Part shown: positions 34,662-63,542 of the stretch, in pieces | Layout: each line of letters begins with the position of its first letter | Numbering within the stretch: position 1 is the stretch's first letter | Assembly: GCA_049322675.1 (NCBI GenBank) | Contig: JBMORM010000010.1 | Span: forward strand, 19,028-83,027 | Direction: 5' to 3' | Length of the DNA: 64,000 nt | DNA from: Patescibacteria group bacterium | GTDB taxonomy: Bacteria; Patescibacteriota; JAHJAL01 | Position numbers and translations under genes: made by a program | The notes under the pieces: model-generated | Seen by the model: only the letters and a program-made list of their open reading frames with translations | Told to the model about the DNA's origin: nothing | Databases searched by the model: none

Positions 34662-34975
34662 TCATTTTTTTAAATTGGTATTATCGGACTTTGACCGTCG
34701 GACTGGCGGGGATTTTTTTGGATATATTTAGCACGATATCTCAGTCGTTCGCCATATCGATTATGGCCAAACATATTTTTGAACCTCTTTACCAGGATTA
34801 CACTTACGCCGGACGAGTGATCGGATTTTTTATCCGGTCGGGGAGGATAATATTGGGACTGATAGTAGAATTTATTTTTCTGCTTATTATCGGCTTGATC
34901 ATGATTTTATGGGTCTTGCTGCCACTGATTATAATTGGAAAAATAATTTTTATACTTTTTACGATGTGGGGCTAA
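34658..34975 (+). CDS. Small membrane protein (105 aa), translationally coupled (ATGA overlap) to the preceding giant gene
   Basis: The start ATG overlaps the stop of 30060..34661. Two to three hydrophobic helices (TVGLAGIFLDIF..., ILGLIVEFIFLLIIGLIMILWVLLPLIIIGKIIFILF). Confidence 0.5.
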   Translation: MIIFLNWYYRTLTVGLAGIFLDIFSTISQSFAISIMAKHIFEPLYQDYTYAGRVIGFFIRSGRIILGLIVEFIFLLIIGLIMILWVLLPLIIIGKIIFILFTMWG

Positions 34976-34977
34976 AG

Positions 34978-35087
34978 AGCAATTTCCAATTTCCAATTCT
35001 CAATTTCCAAAAAATATTTTGTTGGAATATTGGGAAATTGGTTATTGGAAATTTATTGGAAACTGGAAATTGGTTATTGGAAATTTT
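34978..35087. repeat. AATTTCCAA/TTGGAAATT heptad-repeat dyad element (family 2)
   Basis: caatttccaatttccaattctcaatttccaaaaaatattttgttggaatattgggaaattggttattggaaatttattggaaactggaaattggttattggaaatttt lies immediately upstream of the ClpC-like gene start. Confidence 0.8.
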
Positions 35088-37766
35088 ATGAATAAGTTGA
35101 AGGTTGAACTCATTGATTGTCAAAACTGTGCGGTGAATAACGGCGATAGTAATTGCGTGTATTGCAATGGCAAGCAGTATTTGGCCAAAGCAGGCGGCAT
35201 GATATTGTTTTGGGGGCCAAGTAAAGATCCGACTTTTATCAAATCGCCGGAGTATTTGCGTTTTAAAAAAATGACCAAGACCTTGATGTTTTTTGCCAAT
35301 TTGATCATGTTGATTTTGACGACGGTGATTATGGCGATTACTGCTTTGAAGGGCGGACAGAATTTTGTTTTGGATATTTTGGTAAAAAGTTCGCCGGCCA
35401 CTTTTTTGTGGTGGGTGTTGTCGGGATTACTTTTGATAACAGCTTTCAATTATTTTTATCGGGAAGCAAAAATTAAACCGGTCAGGGATTTTGGACCGGT
35501 ACCGACACACGACAGTTTATTTCGACGCGTGGATATTGCAAAAGCGTTTGACGGGGATTTGGTGACGACTTTGAATTTGGCGATAATATCTGCTCATAAG
35601 GCCAATAAGACCCCAAATATTTGGTGGCTACTTCGAGAATTAATGAGCGACAACAAATTTTTGTGGATGATTGTCAAAATGGAATTAAATCCGCAACTTA
35701 TTTCCGGTTTTGTCGATTTTCGCTTGAACAATTTTGAAAGCCGAGAAAATTGGGAAAAAGATTGGGACAAAGTTTTGCTTGAGGCTTATCTGGAGGGAGC
35801 TCGCATGCGAGCGGACGAGATTTCCTTTAATCATTTGTTTTTGGCCATGATAAAAGCAGATCCGGAAATCGCCCACATATTTGATGAACTGGGGCAATCC
35901 CCACGGGAAATTGAAACAGTTTGTCTATGGCAGGAAAAAATAAATAAACAAATCGCCCGTAATCGGGAATATCGGGAAAAATCTCGTTTCAAGCCGATGG
36001 GGCACATGAATCGGGCCTGGACAGCAGTGCCGACACCGATATTGGATTCTTTTGGTCAGGATTTGACAGCCATGGCCAAATATGAAGCGTTGGAGAGATT
36101 AATCGGAAGGGAAAAGGAAATTTCTCAGACGATGAATGTTTTGGAAAAAATGTCCAAAAATAATGTTTTGTTTATCGGTGAATCCGGGGTGGGAAAATCA
36201 ACGATTGCCAATGGTCTGGCCTACAAAATGGTTTCGGAAGAAGTGCCGGAAATGTTGAAAGACAAGAGATTGATCAATTTGAATATAACTCGTCTTTTTA
36301 GTTCAGCGGGAGACGGGGCGGAAAGATTATTTTTGGGCGCATTGAACGAAGTAATACGGGCCAAAAATGTGATTTTATATATCGATGATTTACATTTGCT
36401 GGCTGGCATCAAGACACGTTCGGGCGGACCGATGGATGCTTTGGCAATTTTGTCGGAAACTTTGAGTAAATATCGGATTCAATTTATCGCTTCCACCAGT
36501 CCGGAAGGTTATTCCAAATATATCAGCACTTATGACCAAATAGTTTCCGAATTGACTTCGATTGAAATACCGGAAGTGGACAATGAAACAGCAATTGCGA
36601 TTTTGGAGGAGGTCACGCATCGGATTGAAAATCAAAATCAGGTGCTAATCACCTATCCGGCGTTGAAAATGGCGGTGGAATTGTCAGCGGATTTGATTAC
36701 CGAGAAAAAATTGCCATCCAAGGCCTATGATCTTTTGACAGAAGCAGCGGTAGTGGCTCGTAATCAAAATAAAAAATTAATGACCAAACAAGATATCATT
36801 AATTTAATGCAGGAAAAAACGCATGTGCCGATTGCCCAGGTAACGACAGAGGAATCAAAATTGTTGCTCAATTTGCACGATGAATTGCACAAACGAGTGA
36901 TCGGTCAGGAATTGGCGGTCAAAGAGGTAGCGGAAGCGATCAAACGGGCAAGAGTAGGATTGAAAGATAAAAGCAAACCGATTGCCTCATTTTTGTTTGT
37001 GGGACCAACCGGAGTGGGAAAAACAGAGCTGGCCAAAGCTTTGGCGGCACTATATTTTGGTGATGAAGAACGAATGATCCGTCTGGACATGAGTGAATAC
37101 CAAGAGGTAAGCGATATCAAAAAAATAATCGGCGCGCCGCCCGGTTCGTCGGAATTCGAGGAAAGAGGTTATCTCACCGAAGCAGTGAAAAAGAATCCAT
37201 TTAGTTTGGTCTTGTTGGACGAGTTGGAAAAAGCTTATCCCAATATTTTGAATCTGTTTTTGCAAGTGTTGGACGAGGGAAAGATCAAGGATAGTCTGGG
37301 ACGGACAGTGAAATTTAATAATACGATTATAATCGCTACCTCCAACGCGGGAACGCCCAAGATTCAGGAAGGGATAAAAAATAATCTGCCTCACGAACAG
37401 ATCGAAGAACAGTTGATGGAAGAATTGAAAAAAGTGTATCGACCGGAGTTTTTGAACCGGTTTGACGGAGTGATCATGTTTGAACCGCTCAAAGTGGAGG
37501 AAATATTACAAATTGCCAAATTGATGATTGCCAAGATAAACAAGTCGTTGGCCAACCAAAAAATCACCGTGGAGGTGATGGATGAGGCTTTAAAATCTTT
37601 TATCGCCGGCGGTTACAATCAAGAGTTTGGCGCCAGGGCGCTGTATCGCACTTTGCAGGACAAGGTAAAAAATGTGATCGCGGAGAAGATGCTGACGGGC
37701 GCACTAAAAGAAGGGATGAAGTTGACCATCGTCAAAGATGGGGAGACGAAGGTGGAGAGGGGGTAA
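35088..37766 (+). CDS. Membrane-anchored ClpC/ClpA-like double-AAA+ ATPase with N-terminal zinc-ribbon and TM helices
   Basis: Start chosen at ATG 35088, because the ORF-track start 35019 runs through the repeat element. The N-terminus has CQNCAVNNGDSNCVYCNGKQY plus 2-3 TM helices. Two Clp_N repeats are present. NBD1 is LIGREKEISQTMNVLEKMSKNNVLFIGESGVGKSTIANGLA. NBD2 is VIGQELAVKEVAEAIKRARVGLKDKSKPIASFLFVGPTGVGKTELAKALA...SEYQE and ...FRPEFLNRFDGVIMFEPL. Confidence 0.85.
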   Translation: MNKLKVELIDCQNCAVNNGDSNCVYCNGKQYLAKAGGMILFWGPSKDPTFIKSPEYLRFKKMTKTLMFFANLIMLILTTVIMAITALKGGQNFVLDILVKSSPATFLWWVLSGLLLITAFNYFYREAKIKPVRDFGPVPTHDSLFRRVDIAKAFDGDLVTTLNLAIISAHKANKTPNIWWLLRELMSDNKFLWMIVKMELNPQLISGFVDFRLNNFESRENWEKDWDKVLLEAYLEGARMRADEISFNHLFLAMIKADPEIAHIFDELGQSPREIETVCLWQEKINKQIARNREYREKSRFKPMGHMNRAWTAVPTPILDSFGQDLTAMAKYEALERLIGREKEISQTMNVLEKMSKNNVLFIGESGVGKSTIANGLAYKMVSEEVPEMLKDKRLINLNITRLFSSAGDGAERLFLGALNEVIRAKNVILYIDDLHLLAGIKTRSGGPMDALAILSETLSKYRIQFIASTSPEGYSKYISTYDQIVSELTSIEIPEVDNETAIAILEEVTHRIENQNQVLITYPALKMAVELSADLITEKKLPSKAYDLLTEAAVVARNQNKKLMTKQDIINLMQEKTHVPIAQVTTEESKLLLNLHDELHKRVIGQELAVKEVAEAIKRARVGLKDKSKPIASFLFVGPTGVGKTELAKALAALYFGDEERMIRLDMSEYQEVSDIKKIIGAPPGSSEFEERGYLTEAVKKNPFSLVLLDELEKAYPNILNLFLQVLDEGKIKDSLGRTVKFNNTIIIATSNAGTPKIQEGIKNNLPHEQIEEQLMEELKKVYRPEFLNRFDGVIMFEPLKVEEILQIAKLMIAKINKSLANQKITVEVMDEALKSFIAGGYNQEFGARALYRTLQDKVKNVIAEKMLTGALKEGMKLTIVKDGETKVERG

Positions 37767-42424: not shown

Positions 42425-42605
42425 TTTATTATTTTGAGACAAATTTCCAAGGATCAATTTCCAATTTCCATTAAATTTCCAATGACCAATTTTCAAACAA
42501 ATAAAGAAACAATATAATTCCATATTTCTACAAGGTTATAATTGTTTGGAAATTGGAAATTGAGCCTTTTTTGGAAACTGGAAATTGGAAATTGGAAATT
42601 AATAA
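42425..42605. repeat. Family-2 heptad-repeat dyad element (full length)
   Basis: ...caatttccaatttccattaaatttccaatgaccaattttcaaacaaataaag...ataattgtttggaaattggaaattgagccttttttggaaactggaaattggaaattggaaatt has left TTCCAA arms, a central TTCAAACAAAT...ATTGTTTGG dyad, and right GGAAATT arms. Confidence 0.8.
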
Positions 42606-43279
42606 TTTATATTCGGATATTTCGGTCGGGCTTTAATGGCCAGAAGCAGCCCGAGGTTGAACCATTTTTCTTCCAAGATTTCGTAACCGATAAATTCCAT
42701 CAGGTGGCGTAATTTGCTGCCGTCGAAACGCTGGACGTGGGAATCGTCCCAGACTCCCCCACCGAGGTTGCCGGGCAAGCGGGTCCAGATTTCCCAGCCA
42801 AGACGAAAATGCAGGTTTTCCGCCGGAACCAAAACAATAACTTGTCCGTCCGGCTTGACCATGCGTTTCATATCTTGCAGGATTTCTACCGGATTTAAAA
42901 CGTGCTCCAAAGTTTCTAAAATCGTAACTGTATCAAAACTTTGATCATCAAATGGAAATTGGTCACTGGCGGCGTCATAGACGGAAAAATCGATGTGAGG
43001 ATATTTTTGACTGGCGTATTGGATAGCGTCAGGAGAAATGTCGATTCCGGTAATCTGAGCATCGGTGTATTTTGACAATTCATTGGTAAAAGTACCGCCG
43101 GCGCAGCCAATATCCAATAATTTACCCTTTGTGCCTCGCAACATGTGACCGATTTTTTTGAAACGATGTTGGTGATAAATACGTTTGATCGGGTGTTTGG
43201 CAATACTGTCGTCATAATAATCGCCGGTAATCGCAGTGTGGATTTGGTCTAAAACTTGTTTGTTGATTTCTTTTTCCAT
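42599..43279 (-). CDS. Class I SAM-dependent methyltransferase
   Basis: 226 aa. LLDIGCAGGTFTNELSKY (motif I), ITGIDISPDAIQYA, FDTVTILETLEHVLNP and DGQVIVLVP. Confidence 0.85.
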   Translation of the reverse strand: MEKEINKQVLDQIHTAITGDYYDDSIAKHPIKRIYHQHRFKKIGHMLRGTKGKLLDIGCAGGTFTNELSKYTDAQITGIDISPDAIQYASQKYPHIDFSVYDAASDQFPFDDQSFDTVTILETLEHVLNPVEILQDMKRMVKPDGQVIVLVPAENLHFRLGWEIWTRLPGNLGGGVWDDSHVQRFDGSKLRHLMEFIGYEILEEKWFNLGLLLAIKARPKYPNINY

Positions 43280-43317: not shown

Positions 43318-43456
43318 TCTATTATGCACAAATTTCCAGTTTCCAGTTTCCAAACGAATCTAATTCTCATTCAATTTCCCTGTATTTGTTTGGAAATTGT
43401 GCCTTGGAAATTTACTGGAAATTGGAAATTGATCATTGGAAATTGTATTAAAGAAT
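43318..43456. repeat. Family-2 heptad-repeat dyad element
   Basis: cacaaatttccagtttccagtttccaaacgaatct...atttgtttggaaattgtgccttggaaatttactggaaattggaaattgatcattggaaattg. Confidence 0.8.
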
Positions 43457-43459
43457 CAT

Positions 43460-45574: not shown

Positions 45575-45582
45575 TTAACAAT

Positions 45583-45705
45583 TAATAAGTTTTCAATTTC
45601 CAGTTTCCAGTTTCCAAAAAAGGCTCAATTTCCAATTTTCAAACAAATGCATTCGAAATTGTATTACTACTGTGTTTGTTTGGAAATTGAGAATTGGAAA
45701 TTTAG
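45583..45705. repeat. Family-2 heptad-repeat dyad element
   Basis: tttcaatttccagtttccagtttccaaaaaaggctcaatttccaattttcaaacaaatgcattcg...gtgtttgtttggaaattgagaattggaaatttagcc. Confidence 0.8.
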
Positions 45706-52751: not shown

Positions 52752-52844
52752 GAATATTGGTTTTTATTTGGATATTATTTTTAGATTAAATCCGTATATT
52801 GTAGCATGCCTGGGTAAATTTTGCAAGGTTTGGGGCGCAAAAAA

Positions 52845-52872
52845 TGTAGGGGCGGTTCATGAACCGCCCCTA
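52845..52872. repeat. REP-like palindrome (single unit)
   Basis: gtaggggcggttcatgaaccgcccctac is a perfect hairpin, downstream of groEL. Confidence 0.85.
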
Positions 52873-52999
52873 CGATGATATTTTATTTGCAGACATGGGA
52901 CCAAAAATTGTATTTAATTAAAAACACAATCCCTCAAATCATGTCTGCGTAGGCCAGTGTATGCTTATCGGGATATTTAAGCAATACTTTTTCAAGAAA

Positions 53000-54682
<1,683 letters not shown>

Positions 54683-54744
54683 TTATTCAGTTAAAAAAGT
54701 GAATTGTGGTTCTTGATGCGTGGAAGAAAGAAAGTTGGTTCATA

Positions 54745-54800
54745 AATTTCCAATTTTCAATTTTCAATTTCCATTAAATTTCCAATTTTCAATTTCCAAA
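54745..54800. repeat. Family-2 heptad repeats in the groES-groEL intergenic region
   Basis: aaatttccaattttcaattttcaatttccattaaatttccaattttcaatttccaaacg. Confidence 0.7.
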
Positions 54801-54809
54801 CGAAAAAGA

Positions 54810-54932
54810 GTGTCATCCTGGAGCTGGAAGGTAATCCGCTCCAATATCCAGGATCCATTTCCTTAATTTATTTTATTTTTTTCTGGATTTAAGGATAAGA
54901 AGCGTGATTACACTTTCTTTCCAGAATGACAA
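54810..54932. mobile_element. MITE-like double-hairpin element inserted between groES and groEL
   Basis: gtgtcatcctggagctggaaggtaatccgctccaatatccaggatcc...ttctggatttaaggataagaagcgtgattacactttctttccagaatgacaa. Confidence 0.8.
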
Positions 54933-54955
54933 GATTCCGTGAATGCGTCTAGTAA

Positions 54956-55243
54956 TTAATCTTTGACAATGGCGATGACATCGGATTCGGCGAGAATCAT
55001 GTATTCTTTGCCGTCGATTTTGAATTCGTCGGGAGCGTAGCGGCGGAAAATGATAATATCACCGACTTCAATAGTCATGGGGATGATTTTGCCGTTGTCA
55101 TCCCGCTTGCCCTTACCTACAGCCAATACTTTGGCTTTTTGCGGTTTTTCTTTGTCCATGGTTTCCGGGACGACAAAACCTGATTTACTGGTTTCGACAA
55201 TCGCTTCGATAAGCAGGCGATCGCCTAGAGGGAGTAGTTTCAT
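54956..55243 (-). CDS. groES: Co-chaperonin GroES (Cpn10)
   Basis: 95 aa. MKLLPLGDRLLIEAIVETSKSGFVVPETMDKEKPQKAKVLAVGKG...IIFRRYAPDEFKIDGKEYMILAESDVIAIV. Confidence 0.95.
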   Translation of the reverse strand: MKLLPLGDRLLIEAIVETSKSGFVVPETMDKEKPQKAKVLAVGKGKRDDNGKIIPMTIEVGDIIIFRRYAPDEFKIDGKEYMILAESDVIAIVKD

Positions 55244-55297
55244 AAATGACTCCTTTCAATTAAAAATGGTTAATAGATGAATAAAATCGAATTTATT

Positions 55298-55324
55298 TTA
55301 GCACTCAAATAATTCATGTGCTAT
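55298..55324 (-). promoter_or_regulatory. Degenerate CIRCE-like inverted repeat upstream of groES (putative HrcA operator)
   Basis: The + strand reads TTAGCACTC-AAATAATTC-ATGTGCTAT. One half-site is a perfect CIRCE half (TTAGCACTC / GAGTGCTAA on the other strand), and the other half matches 5 of 9 with the correct 9-nt spacer. It sits about 55 nt upstream of the groES start. Confidence 0.45.
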
Positions 55325-55703
55325 TTTTTATTTTAAAAAAGTTTATGGCGACTGACAAGAGGAAAGTTATTCAATTTTTAATTTTCAATTTATAATTTAT
55401 AAACAGATTTTGTTAGGATATTTATGGGAGATTTGAAGAGATAAAAATTTAGTGTTAAGATGTTGTTGTGTGATTTTGCTTGAAAAAAATCTTGGTAATA
55501 TAGATCCAAATATTTTTTCTCGTGAAAATTGTCGAAGAAATTTTTAAAATATTCCAAAAATTGTGAATGCTCCGATTGACCGGAGTGTAACGAGGATCAA
55601 TCAGGAAATGAAAATTTTTGGAAAGAGGAGGAACCGGTCCGGTAGTGCAGCGAAAGGCAAGTATTCTTGACTTGCTCGAAACAGTAGGATCGTGTTCTGA
55701 CGA

Positions 55704-55777
55704 GGGCGGTTAGCTCAGCTGGTTAGAGCGCCACATTGACATTGTGGAGGTCAGAGGTTCGATTCCTCTATCGCCCA
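55704..55777 (+). tRNA. tRNA-Val (anticodon GAC)
   Basis: Cloverleaf: acceptor GGGCGGT/ATCGCCC (7 bp, one G-T), D-arm GCTC-AGCTGGTTA-GAGC, anticodon arm CCACA-TTGACAT-TGTGG (U33, G34 A35 C36, A37), variable loop AGGTC, T-arm AGAGG-TTCGATT-CCTCT, discriminator A. No CCA is encoded. Confidence 0.85.
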
Positions 55778-55784
55778 TTATTTA

Positions 55785-55822
55785 AAAAAACCGTTATGAA
55801 ATTATAACGGTTTTTTGTTGAT
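55785..55822 (+). terminator. Rho-independent terminator after tRNA-Val
   Basis: aaaaaaaccgttatgaaattataacggttttttgttg is a hairpin (accgttat/ataacggt) followed by a T-run. Confidence 0.75.
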
Positions 55823-55833
55823 TTTGAAAAAGA

Positions 55834-56037
55834 TTATTCCTGATTTTCCTTGATTACTTCCTGATTAGCTAGCTTTTCTAGTTTCGTTAAATAATTTTCC
55901 AGGTACGAGTCACGTAAATCAATTCTTTCTTCCGTTTCTTCTTGATTATTTTCTCGGGGACAAAAATTGGGTTTGGTCATGTTTTCGTTATTAAATATTA
56001 TTTTTTCTATATTAACGATTATTTTGCCAAAGGGCAA
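55834..56037 (-). CDS. Small hypothetical protein (67 aa)
   Basis: ORF only. Acidic C-terminal half. No support beyond an open frame. Confidence 0.25.
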   Translation of the reverse strand: MPFGKIIVNIEKIIFNNENMTKPNFCPRENNQEETEERIDLRDSYLENYLTKLEKLANQEVIKENQE

Positions 56038-56540
56038 ATGGGCAAGAAAAAACCCCGGGCGAGGACTCTATTTTATATTTTTGGTGGTGATAGAGTGCCG
56101 AATTGTGCCCGGGGTAAAAGATTTATTTAAATTTTGATTTTTTCAAAAAACCCTGACCGCTTTAATTTCGTGAATCGAAGCTCTTTTGAGATTTAATGAG
56201 CGGCGGCCAGGGTATCAAAAACCCCTTAAATCTCTCCCTTTCGAAAGAAAAGGAGAGATAAAGAGGATTGTTTTAAAAAATAATTTGAGGAAATGTCGAA
56301 AAGGAGGTAAATAGAGAAAACGACATTTCCTCAAATTTTTTCAGAAAGAAAGGATGATTTTTTATTTCAACAAACCAAACACCTGCCCTTGCTCCAAGGC
56401 AAGAAGACCTTTTAAAGGAGGGAATAATAAAATGGTCTTCAGTGAGGGGGGATTTTTTTATTTTTTCCCCGGCTTGGAGCAGATTTTTTTGGGATTTTTA
56501 AAAGGGAGGTGTTTGGTTTGGGATTTTTTGGTTTTTTATC

Positions 56541-56570
56541 GTAGGGGCGGGTTTCAAACCCGCCCCTACA
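56541..56570. repeat. REP-like palindrome
   Basis: gtaggggcgggtttcaaacccgcccctaca. Confidence 0.85.
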
Positions 56571-56687
56571 TATATTTTTTTTAAAGATCAAAATAATACC
56601 GATGAATTCATGTTTTTATCGAATCCATCAGTGATTTCATCATATCAGAAAATATTGGAATGTGCCAAAATTTGGGGGTTAATTTTG

Positions 56688-56714
56688 TTGGGGCGGGGTG
56701 ACCCCGCCCGTACA
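56688..56714. repeat. REP-like palindrome
   Basis: ggggcggggtgaccccgcccgtaca. Confidence 0.85.
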
Positions 56715-56774
56715 TTAATTATTTATTAATTTTTATTTCATTTGAAAATAATTTCGGTTTGTTAATTTGGGAAT

Positions 56775-57377
56775 ATGCGAATAAATGCCAGAAAAACAAT
56801 CCGTTTGCCAAATTATGATTATTCATCACCCGATGATTATTTTGTGACGATTTGTACGAAGGATCGGGAATGTTTGTTGGGAAATGTGATTGATGATGAA
56901 ATGGTGTTGAATAAATACGGGAAAATTATTGAACAATATTGGTTTGATTTACCCAATCATTATCCCAATATCATATTGGATGAATTTGTGGTGATGCCCA
57001 ATCATGTGCATATGATCATATCAATCGTAGGGGCGGGGTCTCCCCGCCCTTCCACGGTTTTGCCCCGCCCCTCCATGAATCAAAACGCAATCCGAAACAT
57101 TAAACCGATTCACCAAATAAACGACAATTGTGTGAGGGGCGAGGAAACCTCGCCCCTACGAAAAATACGAAAAATAACGTTGGGCAATATTGTTGCATAT
57201 TTTAAATATCAAACAACCAAACAAATAAACAAAATTTTGTGCAATATTGGTCATAAAATCTGGCAACGGAATTATTTTGAACGGATCATAAGAAATGAAC
57301 GCGAATTGAACAAAACCCGGGAATATATTCAAAACAATCCATACAATTGGCCAAACGATCGAAATAATAATTTATAA
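56775..57377 (+). CDS. IS200/IS605-family Y1 (HuH) transposase of the REP-associated tyrosine transposase (RAYT) type, carrying an in-frame REP insertion
   Basis: 200 aa. The HuH motif is MPNHVHMII. The catalytic-Tyr helix is WQRNYFERIIRNERELNKTREYIQNNPYNW (compare the IS200/RAYT consensus WQR.YY-H.IR.E.-L....YI..NP). Between the two, about 45 aa (GAGSPRPSTVLPRPSMNQNAIRNIKPIHQINDNCVRGEETSPLRKIRK) are encoded by REP DNA (57027..57160). Confidence 0.8.
   Translation: MRINARKTIRLPNYDYSSPDDYFVTICTKDRECLLGNVIDDEMVLNKYGKIIEQYWFDLPNHYPNIILDEFVVMPNHVHMIISIVGAGSPRPSTVLPRPSMNQNAIRNIKPIHQINDNCVRGEETSPLRKIRKITLGNIVAYFKYQTTKQINKILCNIGHKIWQRNYFERIIRNERELNKTREYIQNNPYNWPNDRNNNL
57027..57160. repeat. REP units inserted in-frame inside the RAYT coding sequence
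   Basis: gtaggggcggggtctccccgccc ... ccccgcccctcc ... gaggggcgaggaaacctcgcccctacg. No stop codon in the gene's frame. Confidence 0.8.
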
Positions 57378-57483
57378 CGTACGGGCGGGGTCTCCCCGCC
57401 CCTCCATGGTTATTTTTCCTTTCCACGTTATTTTAACCTCCTTGGGCAATCGCAATGAGGGGCGGGGAAACCCCGCCCCTACG
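57378..57483. repeat. Two REP units immediately 3' of the RAYT gene
   Basis: gtacgggcggggtctccccgcccctcc and gaggggcggggaaaccccgcccctacgg. Confidence 0.85.
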
Positions 57484-57736
57484 GTATGGTATGTGATTTC
57501 AGGGTGGGGTTTTGGGGCGTTTTTTCATTGACAGATTGCGTTTTCGATGGTATGTTCGCGTTAACCATTAAATAAAATTTTTAAAGAAATTTTGAGAGGT
57601 GGTGAACATTAAAAATTAGCAACTCCGACGACGTTTTTGGGAATTTTGACGTCTCGGAGAAAAAATTAGGAAAGTTTCCTATTCCTGCATGCCGACAGGA
57701 AGAAAAAATAACATGGCATATATTTTTTGAGAGGAT

Positions 57737-59407
57737 GTGAGAAAAATGACGAGAGTCATTTTTTTGTTTTTTGTATTAACATACTTAGGTTTTTCTTTGA
57801 TAGGTTGCGGCGGAGGATCTGGAACGGGGGCGGATGTGAATGTAAACACTCCAGTTCCCTTGGCTACCGCTACGCCGTTAAACCAATTAACTACGACAAT
57901 AAGCGGAATTTTTTTAATGAGGGATAAGACTACTCCACAAAATGACCCAAATATGGTTGTACTTATCCAAAGTTCTTCTATAAATTCAAGCGCCATTCAA
58001 ACAAATTATAATGTTCTTGTTCACATAAATAATCTTGGAAAGTTTACATCTGCAGGAGCTCCTTATGGAACATTATTTTTTTATGGATGGCCAAGCTCTG
58101 TTGCTTATAACAATGATGCACAAAAGAATCAGTTTGTTTGTTCGTCAAAGTTTGAAGCTACAGGACCAGAATTAGCTGTTGTACTTGTTGAGGGTGAATT
58201 TATTCAGGGGAATCCAACCCCTGTCTCCACGCCAACAGCAAATCCAATTATGACCCCGACTCCCACAGGCACGACAACGCCTCCAACTACTACCCCAACA
58301 ACAGTTCCTACAACTTTGCCCACTCCGAATGGGGCACAAGTTGTTGTTTCTGGGTTGCCAATCGGGGCAGTTATTGAGGTGTTGCCTAAGATTGATATTT
58401 CTGGTTACAACTGGGTTGAGTTTTCTCCAGCTGACAAGGTCAGCGGAGACGATCATAGATATCGATTGAATTTTACTGCCCCATCTCCTTTGATTTCTGG
58501 AACAGCTGGTAATAGTGGGGTGGTAAATATTAATGGATTAACTGTTGGAAACTATTACAATGTCAGAGTCATGGATAGCTCTGGCAAAATTATTGGTAAT
58601 TTTTATTTTCAGACGGTAGCGGGAAATAACAGTTTTACATATCCGTCAGGAAATAAAAGAACTGTTCGTTTTTATATTAACCAAAAGACAAATACCACGA
58701 CCGAAAGATTAGTGGATTTGTCTAAGTGCACAGTATATCTTCAAATGAACAATGGGTCAGCGTGGTATTCCGAATGCTACTGGCAGGATTACTCGGACAC
58801 AAAGGGATACTACGTTGATTTTCAGGGGATGGGCACTGGAGCCGGAACGGTGAACTTTTGGCTGGTTGACAAATTTGGAAACAATATTGGGTCCAATACA
58901 GTTTATGTCAATATTGGTTCCAGTACTTCCAAAGTAACCATTCCGATGACTGACTTCCAACCCATGGGTGACCAATTTATGGAAGACCCCAATGGGGTTG
59001 ACCATTTTGGCAATGGGTCAGCTGTCAGCGGAGGCTGGAACTGGCCAGTAACTGCAGTTTCCAGCGATAAGTATTTTTGGCAGAAGACAAGTGGATACAC
59101 TTTTTCAACTTCAAGGTTGGTAGCAGTGAAAATTAAGTGTAGTCCATTGTCTCGAAACCAGACAGAAACCCTGATCTTCCGGTCTGACATCACAGGCGCC
59201 GCTGGCGTCTGGTACTATCGCGGAGTTAGGGAAAAGGATTTTTATGCGGGAAATGATTATGTAATTATAATCTTTCCAGCAGAAGCTGGCACAAATTATA
59301 AGATAAGCCAGTTGGCGACTTCAGGATATCTGGGAGGCGTCACAATCAACTGGGTGAGTATCTTCCAGATCATGACCGTCGTTGCCGGAAATCCCGAATA
59401 TCAATAA
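57737..59407 (+). CDS. Lipoprotein with Thr/Pro-rich linker (hypothetical, 556 aa)
   Basis: Signal plus lipobox MRKMTRVIFLFFVLTYLGFSLIGC|GGGSG. Linker PTPTGTTTPPTTTPTTVPTTLPTP. No recognisable catalytic motif. Confidence 0.7.
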   Translation: MRKMTRVIFLFFVLTYLGFSLIGCGGGSGTGADVNVNTPVPLATATPLNQLTTTISGIFLMRDKTTPQNDPNMVVLIQSSSINSSAIQTNYNVLVHINNLGKFTSAGAPYGTLFFYGWPSSVAYNNDAQKNQFVCSSKFEATGPELAVVLVEGEFIQGNPTPVSTPTANPIMTPTPTGTTTPPTTTPTTVPTTLPTPNGAQVVVSGLPIGAVIEVLPKIDISGYNWVEFSPADKVSGDDHRYRLNFTAPSPLISGTAGNSGVVNINGLTVGNYYNVRVMDSSGKIIGNFYFQTVAGNNSFTYPSGNKRTVRFYINQKTNTTTERLVDLSKCTVYLQMNNGSAWYSECYWQDYSDTKGYYVDFQGMGTGAGTVNFWLVDKFGNNIGSNTVYVNIGSSTSKVTIPMTDFQPMGDQFMEDPNGVDHFGNGSAVSGGWNWPVTAVSSDKYFWQKTSGYTFSTSRLVAVKIKCSPLSRNQTETLIFRSDITGAAGVWYYRGVREKDFYAGNDYVIIIFPAEAGTNYKISQLATSGYLGGVTINWVSIFQIMTVVAGNPEYQ

Positions 59408-59536
59408 CACATATCAACATACAAGCAAGGCGATCCCCCGGCCTTTAACTGGGGGAATTTTTTTGTCCGGAAATGGGGGGAATATTATTGGGGCGGGTTT
59501 TTTGAAACCGGTCTTTTTTTTGTGGGGTTTTTCCCG

Positions 59537-59687
59537 TCGTAGGGGCGAGGTCTCCTCGCCCCTACATGTTTATTTTTCTTTTTTCAGGTCAAACCCGATG
59601 AAGGGCGGGGAAACCCCGCCCCTACGATTTTGGGCGGACATATACAATCGGGCAGACACGTGGGTCCGCCCCTACGGGGACAAACGC
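59537..59687. repeat. REP-like palindrome cluster (same composite order as 3338 and 6097 clusters)
   Basis: cgtaggggcgaggtctcctcgcccctaca; gggcggggaaaccccgcccctacga; gggcggacatatacaatcgggcagacacgtgggtccgcccctacgggg. Confidence 0.85.
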
Positions 59688-59737
59688 GGGGGGGGGTGGT
59701 GGTGGGGGTTTTGGGGATTTGGGGTATAATTGGGGAA

Positions 59738-59866
59738 TGAGAGAAATTTCCAATTCTCAATTTCCAATTTCCAAAAAATGTCCAATTTCCAATTATCAAA
59801 CTAAATAACATTGGAAATTGTGCCTTGGAAATTTATTGGAAACTGGTCATTGGAAATTGGAAATTT
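59738..59866. repeat. Family-2 heptad-repeat dyad element upstream of rlmN
   Basis: gaaatttccaattctcaatttccaatttccaaaaaatgtccaatttccaattatcaaactaaataacattggaaattgtgccttggaaatttattggaaactggtcattggaaattggaaatttgtc. Confidence 0.8.
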
Positions 59867-59914
59867 GTCAATCAAGCTGATAGACAATTGATAATTTAAT
59901 GAAATAAGAAAAAG

Positions 59915-61150
59915 ATGTTTTCCGAAATTATTAAACAACAGGGGTGGAGTAAGTACCGCGAGAAGCAGATCAATCGCGGGGTTTTTGTGGAACTTGTAAA
60001 TAATTGGCAGGAGATTACTAGTTTACCGAGGGAGATTCGGGATTATTTGGACGATAATGTGCCGTTTTGTTCTTTGAAACTGGTGCGGGAACAGGTAAGT
60101 AAAAATAACGATACGGTGAAAGCATTATTTGAATTGGCGGATGGTAATATGATCGAATCGGTGCTGATGATGCATGCGGACCGCAATACGGTGTGCGTGT
60201 CCAGTCAGGTCGGGTGTCCGGTGGGTTGCACGTTTTGCGCCACCGGGGCGATGGGATTCAAGAGAAATTTAACCAGTCGGGAGATTGTGGATCAGGTGTT
60301 GTGGTGGGCGCGGAAGGCGAGAAATTTCCAATTTCCAAATCCCAGTTTCAAAAAAATTTCCAATGACCAAACAGATACCGTAGGGGCGACCCTTGCGGTC
60401 GCCCGGAATGGGGATATCGTCGGGGCGGATCAATGCGTTCGTCCGGATTTATCGTCCGTAGGGGCGGGGTCTCCCCGCCCATCCATGGATATTTTTCGGG
60501 CAAATATTTCCCGGGTAAATGGCAATACCGCCAAGGGCGGGGAGACCCCGCCCCAACGAGTTAATAATATCGTATTCATGGGGATGGGGGAACCGATGAT
60601 GAATTTGGAGAATGTGGCTGATGCGATAACTGTTTTGACGGACAAAGAGAAATTTGGGATTAGTAAGAGGAAAATTACCATTTCGACCAGCGGATATATT
60701 GCCAATTTGGATAAATTGTTGAAACAATTTCCGCATATTGGACTGGCAATCAGTTTGCATGCGCCGACGCAAGAGTTGCGGGAAAAAATCATGCCGACAG
60801 CGGCAAAAAATAATCCGTTGGATAAATTGATTGATCTGGTAGCAGATTATTCTCGCAAGACGAAACGGAGGGTGAGTTTTGAATATATACTGATTGAAAA
60901 GGTCAATGACGACTTGATTCAGGCGCAACAATTGGCAAAATTGTTGTCAAATAAAGGTTTTCTTTTTCATGTCAATTTGATAGCATTTAATGCGGACAAA
61001 AAAAATGGCGCGCAAAAATACTCTCGACCAAACAGCCAGCGGGTGAATTTTTTTCGAGATGAACTGATCAAACTGAAAGTGCCGGTATCGATCAGATCCA
61101 GCATGGGTGAGGATATCGCCGCCGCCTGCGGACAATTGGCCAATAACTGA
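59915..61150 (+). CDS. rlmN: 23S rRNA (adenine2503-C2)/tRNA methyltransferase RlmN (radical SAM) with a ~240-nt in-frame repeat insertion
   Basis: 411 aa. The radical-SAM cluster is CVSSQVGCPVGCTFCATGAMGFKRNLTSREIVDQV. Downstream are NIVFMGMGEPMMNLENV, ITISTSGY, LAISLHAPTQELREKIMP and FEYILIEKVNDD. Between WWARKA and NNIVFMGMGEP lie about 80 extra aa (RNFQFPNPSFKKISNDQTDTVGATLAVARNGDIVGADQCVRPDLSSVGAGSPRPSMDIFRANISRVNGNTAKGGETPPQRV) encoded by family-2 heptads plus three REP units. Confidence 0.85.
   Translation: MFSEIIKQQGWSKYREKQINRGVFVELVNNWQEITSLPREIRDYLDDNVPFCSLKLVREQVSKNNDTVKALFELADGNMIESVLMMHADRNTVCVSSQVGCPVGCTFCATGAMGFKRNLTSREIVDQVLWWARKARNFQFPNPSFKKISNDQTDTVGATLAVARNGDIVGADQCVRPDLSSVGAGSPRPSMDIFRANISRVNGNTAKGGETPPQRVNNIVFMGMGEPMMNLENVADAITVLTDKEKFGISKRKITISTSGYIANLDKLLKQFPHIGLAISLHAPTQELREKIMPTAAKNNPLDKLIDLVADYSRKTKRRVSFEYILIEKVNDDLIQAQQLAKLLSNKGFLFHVNLIAFNADKKNGAQKYSRPNSQRVNFFRDELIKLKVPVSIRSSMGEDIAAACGQLANN
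60320..60560. repeat. Composite repeat insertion (family-2 heptads + 3 REP palindromes) lying in-frame inside rlmN
   Basis: gagaaatttccaatttccaaatcccagtttcaaaaaaatttccaatgaccaaac... gtaggggcgacccttgcggtcgcccgg ... gtaggggcggggtctccccgcccatcc ... gggcggggagaccccgcccc. Length is about 241 nt (a multiple of 3 within error), with no stop in the gene frame. Confidence 0.8.
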
Positions 61151-61165
61151 TTAAATCTATATATT

Positions 61166-61687
61166 ATGACATTGAAGGCAAAAGAGAAAATTTCGTTTCA
61201 AATGGATGAATCGAAAATAGATCGGTTCAAATATCGAGACTATAATCCGGAGATTGTTGAGGAAAACGAAAAAACAATTATTATTTATCGAGGGTATCAC
61301 TGGTGCAAATATGAAAAAAATACCGATCCGGAGTTTTTGAGAGAGAAAAAGAGTTATAATTATGGGTTGCTTTACAATAATTTTGATATTTGGTTGTCAA
61401 AAAATTATTTTCATAAAGAGACTTTAAACAGATGCGATATTGAGAGAATCAGGGCGGAGCTGAGAACTATTATGGAATTGCTGAGTTTTGTCAAAGCTTC
61501 GACTATGCCTTTTCAAAAAAGACTGAATAGAGCGGTCGAGGTGTATCGAAAAAATATTTGCGACTACCAGAAAAATCCCAGCGAATTTGTAGATGATATT
61601 GTTGACTGCCAAAAAAGTTTAGATTTGTTGTGTGCGGCTCAGTCTGAATATTATTATTTGCGCAAGGAATTATTGCTGGGAAAATAG
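61166..61687 (+). CDS. Hypothetical protein (173 aa)
   Basis: ORF only. Its 3' end overlaps the convergent 61670..63181 gene by 18 nt. Confidence 0.45.
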   Translation: MTLKAKEKISFQMDESKIDRFKYRDYNPEIVEENEKTIIIYRGYHWCKYEKNTDPEFLREKKSYNYGLLYNNFDIWLSKNYFHKETLNRCDIERIRAELRTIMELLSFVKASTMPFQKRLNRAVEVYRKNICDYQKNPSEFVDDIVDCQKSLDLLCAAQSEYYYLRKELLLGK

Positions 61688-63181
61688 ATAAAGATGCGAA
61701 TATCGGTTGATTTCTGATTGCCAGAGGAGAGAATAATTTTTTTCAATGTATTCCAAAAGGGCCGGTTCGAGTCGATCACGGGCCATTTGGTCGTACAAAA
61801 TATAGGTTTTTTTGGTGGAAGAGAGTTTTTTTAATTCCTCCAGATTGTTGATAGTGGGGGCATTGGCATAAATTTCCCTTCCTGATGATCCGACATATTT
61901 GTCAGGGTTATTTTTACCGAGGTAATCAAAGGCTAGCCAGTATCCGGGCTGGTTTAGATATATTTTGGTCAAATTGGGATAGGCGGAAATCACAATATCT
62001 TCAGCTTGCAGATTGGATTTGATTTTGGCGTAGCCGGCGGCGAAATCCGGTTGGGGGGTGTAGGAGAGATAGGTTTTGGTCGAAGATATTGGACTTGATT
62101 CGAGGGCGTAGAAAGATTGTGGGATTAGAATTAATTCCTTGGTTAGGAAGAGGGAGAGGAGAACAGCTAAGAAAAAAATGATTTTTACTGTTGCTGACTT
62201 TATTTGTAGGTAAATTTTTTCAATAAGGATGGCGGAGATGATAAATAATATCGGGGTGAAGATAAATAGGTAGCGGAAGATGAGATTTTTGAAGAAGAAA
62301 CTGAAGATGATAAATGGCAGGAGAAAAATTAATAATATAAAAATATGGGGGCGATCGGCTTTTTTATTGGTAAATAACCAGATTGAGCCAACGATGGTTA
62401 AAATGGAAAAAATTGGCCAGGAGTGGGCGAAAAATTCTAGAAATGATGGGAGGTAAAAGTTGAATGCCAGATTATTTTTGATCAAATTGATGGGACTAAA
62501 GATGGTTTGAGGGAGAAAGAAATGGAGAACTTCCAAGAAAATTGGGGCAAAAATCAATAACAATAACCCGGGTTTTTTGTGCTGGCTGGGGAAATATATG
62601 AGCCAGAATAGGAAATAGATGGGTATGAGTAATAAGGCGACGGGGTGAAAGATGGTGGCGATTGATAAAAATAATATCGACCGCAACAAGTCTTTAGTAT
62701 TTTTTAACGTAATTAATTTCCAGAAAAAGTAGACGGAGAGCCAGGCAAAAAGTTCGACAAAGATATACATGCGGATTTGCCGAGACCAAGCGATTTGCCA
62801 AAAAGAGAAACCGACAAAGATGGCGGCCAATATTCCGGTAAAGCGGTTGAATAATTTTTTAACAATATAATAAAATACCAAAATAAATAGAGTGCCAACG
62901 ATGACACTGGGTAACCTTAAGAAAAATAGATCGAGACCAAATATTTTTATGACGCCGGCGAGTAGATAGGTATGAGGAAAAGCACCCCAATAATTGGCGC
63001 CGCTATCAAGAACAGGGATTCCTTTGGTCAAAATTGACAAGGCAGCGTTGAGAGTATAACCCTCATCCATCCAGAGACTGGGAGAGGAGAGTTGGTAGAG
63101 GCGGAGGGAGAGAGCGAGGATCAATATGATTATTATCAAAATCATGGGCCATGGGAAGTGATTGAGGTGTTTTTTTGTCAT
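61670..63181 (-). CDS. GT-C family glycosyltransferase (ArnT/PMT-like, GT39/GT83-type) integral membrane protein
   Basis: Start set at Met 63181. The ORF-track start 63235 lies inside the heptad repeat. The N-terminal loop LRLYQLSSPSLWMDEGYTLNAALSIL carries the conserved D-E/Y of ArnT/PMT-type enzymes. About 11 TM helices and a C-terminal soluble domain. Confidence 0.7.
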   Translation of the reverse strand: MTKKHLNHFPWPMILIIIILILALSLRLYQLSSPSLWMDEGYTLNAALSILTKGIPVLDSGANYWGAFPHTYLLAGVIKIFGLDLFFLRLPSVIVGTLFILVFYYIVKKLFNRFTGILAAIFVGFSFWQIAWSRQIRMYIFVELFAWLSVYFFWKLITLKNTKDLLRSILFLSIATIFHPVALLLIPIYFLFWLIYFPSQHKKPGLLLLIFAPIFLEVLHFFLPQTIFSPINLIKNNLAFNFYLPSFLEFFAHSWPIFSILTIVGSIWLFTNKKADRPHIFILLIFLLPFIIFSFFFKNLIFRYLFIFTPILFIISAILIEKIYLQIKSATVKIIFFLAVLLSLFLTKELILIPQSFYALESSPISSTKTYLSYTPQPDFAAGYAKIKSNLQAEDIVISAYPNLTKIYLNQPGYWLAFDYLGKNNPDKYVGSSGREIYANAPTINNLEELKKLSSTKKTYILYDQMARDRLEPALLEYIEKNYSLLWQSEINRYSHLYLFSQQ

Positions 63182-63187
63182 AATATT

Positions 63188-63366
63188 TAGTGAAAATTTC
63201 CAATTTCCAAGGCGCAATTTCCAATAAATGATCAATTTCCAATTTCCAGGTGAAATACTAAAACCATTATTCGTATTATTCGAAAATCTAATTTGTTTGG
63301 AAATTGCCAGCAGCAGTTCGGTCCCGTGAGGGAAAAATTTTTTGGAAATTGGAAATTGTGAATTGG
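63188..63366. repeat. Family-2 heptad-repeat dyad element (full length)
   Basis: aaatttccaatttccaaggcgcaatttccaataaatgatcaatttccaatttccagg...aatttgtttggaaattgccagcagcagttcggtcccgtgagggaaaaattttttggaaattggaaattgtgaattggaaattttt. Confidence 0.8.
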
Positions 63367-63542
63367 AAATTTTTTTTCCTTGTCTAAATTATAAATGATC
63401 CCTGGGCTTTACGGCAGAGATATTTTTGTGGTAATATGAATTAAATAATGTGTACCTTAAAAATTAGGGTTTCAGACGAAATTTTTGAAAATCATGTTTT
63501 TAATTATATTAATTTTCTTTTATTCTTTAAATGAGGTTTGTA

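Follow-up and report, generated by a model that had tools for sequence, protein, structure and literature searches.

An in-frame mosaic of REP palindromes and a heptad-repeat arm in a predicted surface loop of RlmN from a Patescibacteria group bacterium

We describe a block of repeat DNA that lies in frame within the coding sequence (CDS) of rlmN, the gene for a radical-SAM rRNA methyltransferase, in a Patescibacteria group bacterium. The DNA analyzed, referred to here as the window, comprises 64,000 nucleotides (nt) of GenBank assembly GCA_049322675.1 (contig JBMORM010000010.1, positions 19,028 to 83,027 of the forward strand), and all coordinates are those of the window unless another contig is named. 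We consider it likely, with a probability of about 0.8, that the insert is a nested cluster of repetitive extragenic palindromes (REPs) with GTAG heads, resembling a bacterial interspersed mosaic element (BIME) and including a REPIN (a REP doublet forming a hairpin), that it belongs to the same REP family as a neighboring gene for a REP-associated tyrosine transposase (RAYT), that it carries in addition one arm of a heptad repeat, and that RlmN tolerates it in a permissive surface loop.

An in-frame repeat mosaic lengthens RlmN by 74 codons

The window RlmN has 81 residues (136-216, encoded by 60320..60562) where most homologs have about seven, a net gain of 74 codons (222 nt), in agreement with a first-pass annotation of the same DNA that had placed a repeat insert of about 80 extra residues at 60320-60560. 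When the protein was aligned to the structure 6fz6 from the Protein Data Bank (PDB), query residues 6-137 and 215-408 matched chain residues 34-165 and 169-356, so that about 75 query residues stand in place of about three. Of 106 homologs that could be scored, 71 have a distance of 37 amino acids (aa) between the CxxxCxxC and GMGEP motifs; in the window RlmN it is 111 aa, the largest value among the 120 best matches. The GC content of the mosaic is 0.55 compared to 0.44 in the remaining CDS. The gene and the parts of the insert are as follows.

59915..61150, + strand: rlmN CDS, an intact 411-aa open reading frame (ORF) that carries the insert.
60313..60558, + strand: the whole in-frame repeat mosaic, 246 nt, encoding approximately residues 134-215.
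60320..60372, - strand: heptad (TTGGAAA/TTTCCAA) arm, one arm only, translated as RNFQFPNPSFKKISNDQ.
60379..60406, + strand: REP a, hairpin CGTAGGGGCGACC-cttgc-GGTCGCCCG, read as VGATLAVAR.
60418..60446, + strand: REP b, degenerate, CGTCGGGGCGGA...TTCGTCCGG, read as VGADQCVRP.
60457..60482, + strand: REP c, CGTAGGGGCGGGG-tct-CCCCGCCC, translated as VGAGSPRP; the doublet's left arm, also found in the sibling allele L001.
60483..60533, + strand: spacer of the REP doublet, about 50 nt, strongly diverged from L001.
60534..60558, - strand: REP d, inverted, GGGCGGGG-aga-CCCCGCCCCAACG, translated as GGETPPQ; the doublet's right arm.

The 246-nt insert is stop-free only in the frame that is used, each of the remaining five frames containing one to three stops, and the stop-free fraction of composition-matched shuffles of the insert was 2.9%. 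The statement of the first-pass annotation that the insert is in frame and free of stops thus holds, whereas its count of three palindromes was too low: there are four hairpins, with heads at 60380, 60419 (the degenerate one) and 60458 and an inverted hairpin ending at 60558. REPs a, c, and d combine a GTAG head (CAAC on the inverted arm) with GC stems of 8-9 bp, and the head of REP b reads GTCG. The spacing of the three forward heads is exactly 39 nt, or 13 codons, and all three are translated in the frame GTA-GGG-GCG (V-G-A), which avoids the TAG within GTAG. REPs c and d form a REPIN-like inverted doublet whose 24-nt arms (60457-60480 and 60535-60558) are 96% complementary and lie 54 nt apart. 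(Note that tandem duplication was entertained as the origin of REPs a to c and rejected; Tandem Repeats Finder reported no 39-nt array and the units are too different from one another, so that they are better seen as separate REPs at typical cluster spacing.) Predicted tryptic peptides of the insert include ISNDQTDTVGATLAVAR and PSMDIFR.

Both components of the mosaic belong to repeat families that are abundant and mostly intergenic in the window, as the first-pass annotation had proposed. The heptad family (GGAAATTGGAAA) has 31 matches where 2.8 are expected, and the REP heads (GTAGGGGCG) have 37 where 4.6 are expected. Sixteen of the 22 REP hairpins are intergenic, four are in rlmN, and two are in the RAYT gene. 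The heptad arrays make up 15 clusters, which lie nearly all between genes and commonly consist of two inverted arms of about 50 nt each (examples are 34968-35098, 42429-42613, 43318-43457, 45582-45649, 54732-54813, 59732-59878, and 63182-63384), and the arm in rlmN has AAATTTCCAATGACCAA in common with the intergenic copy at 42429-42496. These arrays have no match in Rfam. A scan of metagenomes for three consecutive heptads returned mostly isolated single matches among the matches listed, which is uninformative on the heptad family.

The remainder of RlmN is conserved and the insert is predicted to form a disordered loop

The 411-aa protein scored 323.7 bits against the RlmN model TIGR00048 (dual-specificity RNA methyltransferase; cutoff 290), with the match in two stretches and the insert between them, and the only Pfam domain found in the product was Radical_SAM. 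In an alignment of 83 sequences, the window RlmN retains 37 of 37 invariant family columns, including five cysteines: C101, C105, and C108 of the CxxxCxxC radical-SAM motif, together with C94 and C405, which we take to be the two mechanistic cysteines equivalent to C118 and C355 of the E. coli enzyme. The core described as intact in the first-pass annotation is thus indeed intact. A tblastn search with an insert-free RlmN query found no second rlmN in the 64-kb window besides 59915..61150.

An AlphaFold model of RlmN built with the 83 sequences had a mean predicted local distance difference test score (pLDDT) of 83.5 and a predicted template modeling score (pTM) of 0.81, with most of the core above 90. 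The best Foldseek match of the model was 6fz6_A (E 3.9e-36, template modeling (TM) score 0.91), followed by 5hr7 and 3rfa, all of which are RlmN/Cfr structures. The model has a helix at residues 121-137, coil through 217, and a strand at 218-221, with pLDDT below 50 over residues 151-208 of the insert. This predicted order of helix, coil, and strand places the insert in the radical-SAM barrel's loop that connects helix α1 with strand β2, where it is predicted to be a disordered surface loop; the alignment of homologs and structures that the first-pass annotation had recommended leads, together with the model, to the same predicted location. Judging from the topology of a (β/α) barrel, the α1-β2 loop would be found where the strands have their N-terminal ends, on the side facing away from the Fe-S/SAM site.

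Sibling alleles carry shorter REP inserts at the same codon

Two sibling alleles from unrelated samples, L001 (ENA ERZ724101) and L002 (JGI 3300010355), have REPs at exactly the same codon of rlmN as the window. The L002 allele, which encodes 352 aa, contains one 'double-foot' REP, GTAGGGGCATGCCATGGCATGCCCCTAC; the L001 allele, which encodes 367 aa, contains the REP c/d doublet; and the 411-aa window allele contains the heptad arm and two REPs followed by a doublet of the L001 type. All three inserts are in frame, and they add 15, 30, and 74 codons, respectively, at one codon position. The comparison with sibling alleles called for in the first-pass annotation turned up polymorphism, in the form of shorter and different in-frame REP states. 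In a nucleotide alignment the ancestral ...CG-TTAT... junction is retained at 60449-60452 of the window, which indicates that the extra 136 nt of the window allele (60313-60448, comprising the heptad arm and REPs a and b) lie directly 5' of an older REP. Alongside the 136-nt addition, a 1-nt deletion in the window lineage restores the frame.

The regions flanking the insert are under strong purifying selection, and have been so while each lineage had an insert; the ratio of nonsynonymous to synonymous divergence (dN/dS) is 0.064-0.096 at a dS of 0.48-0.71 in the three pairwise comparisons between the window, L001, and L002 alleles. With its intact ORF, invariant catalytic residues, and flanks constrained in this way, rlmN looks still functional and not like a pseudogene. 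For the 37 insert codons that are common to the window and L001, dN/dS is 0.91, and the insert peptide therefore appears to evolve about neutrally, which in turn makes it most likely that the insert is a tolerated genomic parasite. Compared as nucleotides, the window and L001 share conserved REP stems (23 of 23 positions identical in the REP c stem-loop and 19 of 21 in REP d), and only 11 of 30 aligned bases are identical in the spacer (60496-60531), as compared with about 90% identity in the coding flanks. Conserved stems with a divergent spacer are the pattern expected for a homogenized family of mobile repeats.

A REPtron lies 2.9 kb upstream of the insert

The RAYT gene and the repeats that surround it, together with the repeats between it and rlmN, are listed below.

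56541..56713, no strand assigned: REPs 5' of the RAYT gene (REPtron arrangement).
56775..57377, + strand: RAYT / TnpAREP gene, 200 aa, 2.9 kb upstream of the insert; the presumed mobilizing enzyme.
57027..57160: in-frame REP doublet in the RAYT gene, directly after the HUH motif and between the HuH and Tyr motifs.
57379..57482, no strand assigned: REP doublet 3' of the RAYT gene, the best match of the window to REP c (41 nt, 92.7%).
59536..59880, no strand assigned: intergenic mosaic directly upstream of rlmN, with three REPs (59539, 59601, and 59650) and, after them, two heptad arms in inverted arrangement (59732..59878).

The RAYT protein matches the Pfam family Y1_Tnp with 30.7 bits (cutoff 23). 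The region within 4 kb on either side of the gene (52775..61377) makes up 13% of the window and contains 14 of its 22 REP hairpins and five of its eight REP clusters. The window also has 'double-foot' REPs (GTAG...CTAC), one example being 59539-59565. The gene order groEL/groES - RAYT - 550-aa ORF - rlmN - PMT_2 is kept in the sibling locus L132 (GCA_016294905.1) and partly in L007, a more distant relative. L132 has double-foot REPs as well, and its RAYT gene and its rlmN loop, at a distance of 2.7 kb from each other, both contain an identical one (a 28-mer); L132 has no REPs of the window type, and its intergenic regions contain no heptad arrays. In L007 a REP of different sequence, GTAGGGGCACGCTGCTGCGTGCCC, occurs around and inside the RAYT gene and also, as a REPIN, in a different loop of RlmN. 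Thus, the type of REP in rlmN is that of the local RAYT in the window, and the matches in L132 and L007 argue that REP type tracks the local RAYT; rlmN and the REPtron are 2.7-3.6 kb apart in all the syntenic genomes that were compared, namely the window, L132, and L007. We think it most likely that the mosaic was seeded by the neighboring REPtron, and we infer that RAYT-mediated single-strand transposition was the route of insertion.

According to the first-pass annotation, the in-frame REPs in the RAYT gene were a further instance of what had happened in rlmN. The in-frame doublet is real, but it is not a sporadic event, since REPs at this position are a published trait of TnpAREP subclass 2.4 (PMC6006769), and we accordingly dropped the RAYT-internal REP as a discovery. 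RAYT-internal REPs were confirmed in the DNA of L007 (6646-7317), L010 (10001-10570), L011 (10001-10591), and L132 (10001-10552). Judged by eye, almost all the 120 closest RAYT homologs, from several phyla, have REP-like peptides following their HUH motif, and the distance from HUH to WQR ranges from 44 to 143 aa. Note that this list is biased in that the query included the REP peptide; the search was repeated with the REP-free N-terminal 83 aa, and REP-like peptides were also common among the 150 representatives fetched in this way. Our regular expression for such peptides undercounts lineage-specific REPs (VGAIHELPL, VGAKNFSPL, and AGFKPAPT, for example). The C-terminal WQR motif is absent from 106 of the 150 representatives (P0241-P0390), mostly where the ORF ends in or soon after the REP stretch, possibly as a result of assembly breaks at REPs or of frame disruption by REP turnover. 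A PDB sequence search for a solved TnpAREP on which to map the RAYT insert gave no significant match.

REP-like inserts in other RlmN proteins and in other genes

REP-like peptides occur in the same α1-β2 loop of RlmN in other lineages (P0011, P0014, and P0069). Further Patescibacteria RlmN inserts are found at two other sites (L007 10001-11227, P0013; L004 10001-11239, P0012; P0014, P0020, P0069, and P0106). The first of these sites is ahead of the F-H-I/V-N-L-I-P-Y-N-P strand and holds a 148-nt REPIN in L007; the second is after NLIPYNP, where P0012 and P0014 have other palindromic sequence of about 55 aa. RlmN thus appears to have several permissive loops.

A scan of a genome collection with the exact 23-mer of REP c, GTAGGGGCGGGGTCTCCCCGCCC, gave matches in many phyla among the matches listed. 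In a metagenome-assembled genome (MAG) of the Deltaproteobacteria (L049, 4775-5587) the 23-mer is in frame, as VGAGSPRP, in an inositol monophosphatase gene (PF00459, 236.6 bits), just ahead of the WIIDPLDGT motif. It is in frame in other long ORFs too, among them L064 109-1245 (-) and L123 356-7999 (-); an automatic test found the 23-mer inside no RAYT ORF among the matches listed.

Other features near rlmN and elsewhere in the window

Heptad arrays are found between almost every gene at 34-46 kb and also upstream of rlmN and groEL. A G-rich tract, GGGGGGGGGTGGTGGTGGGGGTTTTGGGGATTTGGGG..., at 59686..59740 separates the upstream REP cluster from the heptad inverted repeat, approximately 200 nt ahead of the rlmN start, and could form a G-quadruplex. 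The mechanically assigned start of the PMT_2 glycosyltransferase-like ORF (61670..63235, - strand) enters a heptad arm, MIIYWKLRLGNWKFSLNI... (63182..63263); the true start is probably the downstream MTKKHL, and this heptad copy is likely extragenic. A tRNA-Val (GAC) at 55704..55777 was the sole RNA gene detected in the window with Rfam at the gathering threshold.

Discussion

Our results suggest how the mosaic may have arisen. A REP or REP doublet would have entered after the W-W-A/G-R-Y codons in the ancestor of the three sibling lineages, unless the site is a hot spot that has been hit repeatedly. In the lineage of the window a further 136 nt, consisting of the heptad arm and two REPs, would then have been added directly 5', with the 1-nt deletion restoring the frame. 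Selection would spare only those versions that are in frame and stop-free, and the mosaic is therefore presumably part of the transcript and most likely of the protein, where it would form a disordered loop, about 80 residues long, to which RlmN is tolerant and which would have no function of its own.

The same repeats could instead have inactivated the gene, so that rlmN would be a recent pseudogene whose frame is open by chance. A 74-codon insertion inside the radical-SAM core could plausibly disrupt the enzyme. Moreover, rlmN is conserved but dispensable in E. coli, where knock-outs are viable, and its description as essential in the first-pass annotation was for this reason overstated. However, dN/dS is 0.06-0.10 over a dS of 0.5-0.7 in all three pairs of insert-bearing alleles, the 37 invariant columns and the cysteines among them are kept, each of the three indel states preserves the frame, and just one frame in six and 2.9% of shuffles are open. 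Loss of function, which the first-pass annotation had raised as an alternative, is thus very unlikely. The insert might also be a product of repeat-induced mis-joining in a MAG; REPs are classic assembly breakpoints, and 106 of 150 public RAYT representatives are truncated, many of them right at the REP region. A chimera, though, would rarely keep the frame without stops; a Logan contig (L003, from SRR32167788) is 100% identical to the window across 3575 nt (59751..63325) and spans the whole gene; and two independent samples have REPs at exactly this site. An assembly artefact, which the first-pass annotation had named as an outcome that would undo its proposal, is in view of these findings extremely unlikely.

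Two further possibilities accept the insert as real and the gene as active. The insert might be removed before the mature protein is formed, by an intein-like or intron-like process or by translational bypass, an idea that was raised on account of the large and highly structured insert and in favor of which there is nothing direct. Pfam finds Radical_SAM alone, and no Rfam family lies within the insert at E values up to 1 (in the scanned region, 59400-61200, hits at this level were hairpin-driven, miRNA-like noise, all of it upstream of rlmN). The boundaries, ARKA/RNFQ ... PPQ/RVNN, have neither the C, S, or T at the start nor the H-N followed by C, S, or T at the end that are expected of an intein; boundaries and length differ among siblings; and the content is ordinary intergenic repeat DNA. 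We give almost no credence to removal, although the first-pass annotation had listed it. Alternatively, the insert may have been exapted, with REP hairpins in the mRNA tuning rlmN expression through pausing, RNase protection, or attenuation, or with the loop binding a protein or RNA. Consistent with exaptation, folding prediction gives the insert RNA an unusually strong structure (minimum free energy -114.9 kcal/mol, z -4.4), the REP stems are conserved between siblings when the spacer is not, and the same loop holds inserts in several lineages. Against it, the insert peptide appears to evolve at a near-neutral rate, length and content vary even between close siblings, the loop is predicted to be disordered, and no terminator-like site was found on the sense strand of the insert; homogenization within a mobile repeat family explains the stem conservation equally well. 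We regard exaptation as improbable.

Several points weigh against the reading that we favor, that of a tolerated cluster of REPs and a heptad arm. L003 and the window probably come from the same reads, and the segment with the heptad arm and REPs a and b is present in this genome alone. The near-neutral dN/dS of the insert is calculated from just 37 codons, and the divergence of the spacer fits independent insertions as well as it fits common descent. The match of the RAYT to NF047646 (REP_Tyr_transpos) is under the cutoff (53.2 bits, cutoff 80) and is split into two stretches. Finally, it is from sequence that we infer m2A2503 and tRNA m2A37 methyltransferase activity for the window RlmN, take the insert as most likely translated, and presume that the window RAYT mobilizes the REPs in rlmN.

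A broader proposal, which we put forward tentatively and with some doubt, is that short-range hopping or conversion, with the copy inside the RAYT gene as the source, is the main way in which REPs spread in these tiny, gene-dense genomes, where intergenic space is scarce and the surface loops of neighboring housekeeping genes would be colonized repeatedly. If this were true, REP mobility would be a recurrent and measurable source of protein-length expansion in Patescibacteria, and the rlmN alleles of 352, 367, and 411 aa would be a natural series for testing local hopping. The findings also extend in-frame REP colonization of housekeeping genes to ultra-small Patescibacteria, and they do so with an unusually clear stepwise series in a structurally characterized enzyme, where selection on the remainder of the gene can be demonstrated. 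The alleles amount to a natural experiment that probes the tolerance of a radical-SAM barrel loop for disordered sequence encoded by repeats. For annotation they carry a warning, in that length outliers and 'split' HMM (hidden Markov model) matches among Patescibacteria proteins can stem from translated REPs.

In-frame insertion of REPs is already published for other bacteria, and the rlmN insert represents neither a novel type of element nor a novel mechanism. It is set apart by its host clade, by the gene that it targets, by the second repeat family that it includes, and by the growth series of three alleles. Our literature search found no earlier report of translated REPs for Patescibacteria or for RlmN. 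As regards Patescibacteria, this agrees with the first-pass annotation, which knew of no such report; the mode of insertion is not new, given that in-frame GTAG REPs in unrelated genes are reported by Di Nocera et al. (2013, BMC Genomics 14:522, PMC3733652). These authors describe GTAG and CGTC REPs that lie within coding regions in several species and occur singly, as dimers, or in clusters encoding 43-82 aa, and they argue that intragenic REPs are seated neutrally in loops. Like those REPs, the ones in rlmN have a GTAG head and a GC-rich palindrome and are in frame in a gene for a known protein, to which the insert adds 74 aa. Unlike those listed in the text of that paper available to us, they have a Patescibacteria host and RlmN as a target, are joined by an unrelated heptad arm, and show stepwise growth through three alleles at one codon.

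The REPtron itself resembles a second known system. In the genes of TnpAREP subclass 2.4, the HuH and Tyr motifs have REPs in frame between them, as reported in the study that also defined 'double-foot' REPs (Quentin et al. 2018, BMC Genomics 19:475, PMC6006769). The window RAYT likewise has an in-frame REP doublet between these motifs and is accompanied by double-foot REPs. Unlike in that case, which concerns the transposase gene itself, the same REPs here are also in a neighboring housekeeping gene. With the BIMEs of enterobacteria, which are clustered REP mosaics and are extragenic by definition (Ton-Hoang et al. 2012, PMC3333891), the mosaic shares several REPs in tandem or alternating orientation with short linkers, here three forward heads at a 39-nt period and then one inverted REP; it differs from them in being within an ORF with the frame kept. 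The Rickettsia palindromic elements (RPEs; Ogata et al. 2000), the classic analogue, are, as summarized in PMC3733652 and PMC10969869, palindromes in frame in unrelated conserved genes, thought to be translated, at positions compatible with the fold. The parallel to RPEs drawn in the first-pass annotation is apt as regards the mode of insertion, with an in-frame insert in a conserved gene at a fold-compatible position that the AlphaFold model predicts to be a surface loop. The rlmN insert differs from RPEs, as summarized in those sources, in its host clade and in having a cognate RAYT next door, and we class it with them by how it works, not as a member of the RPE families.

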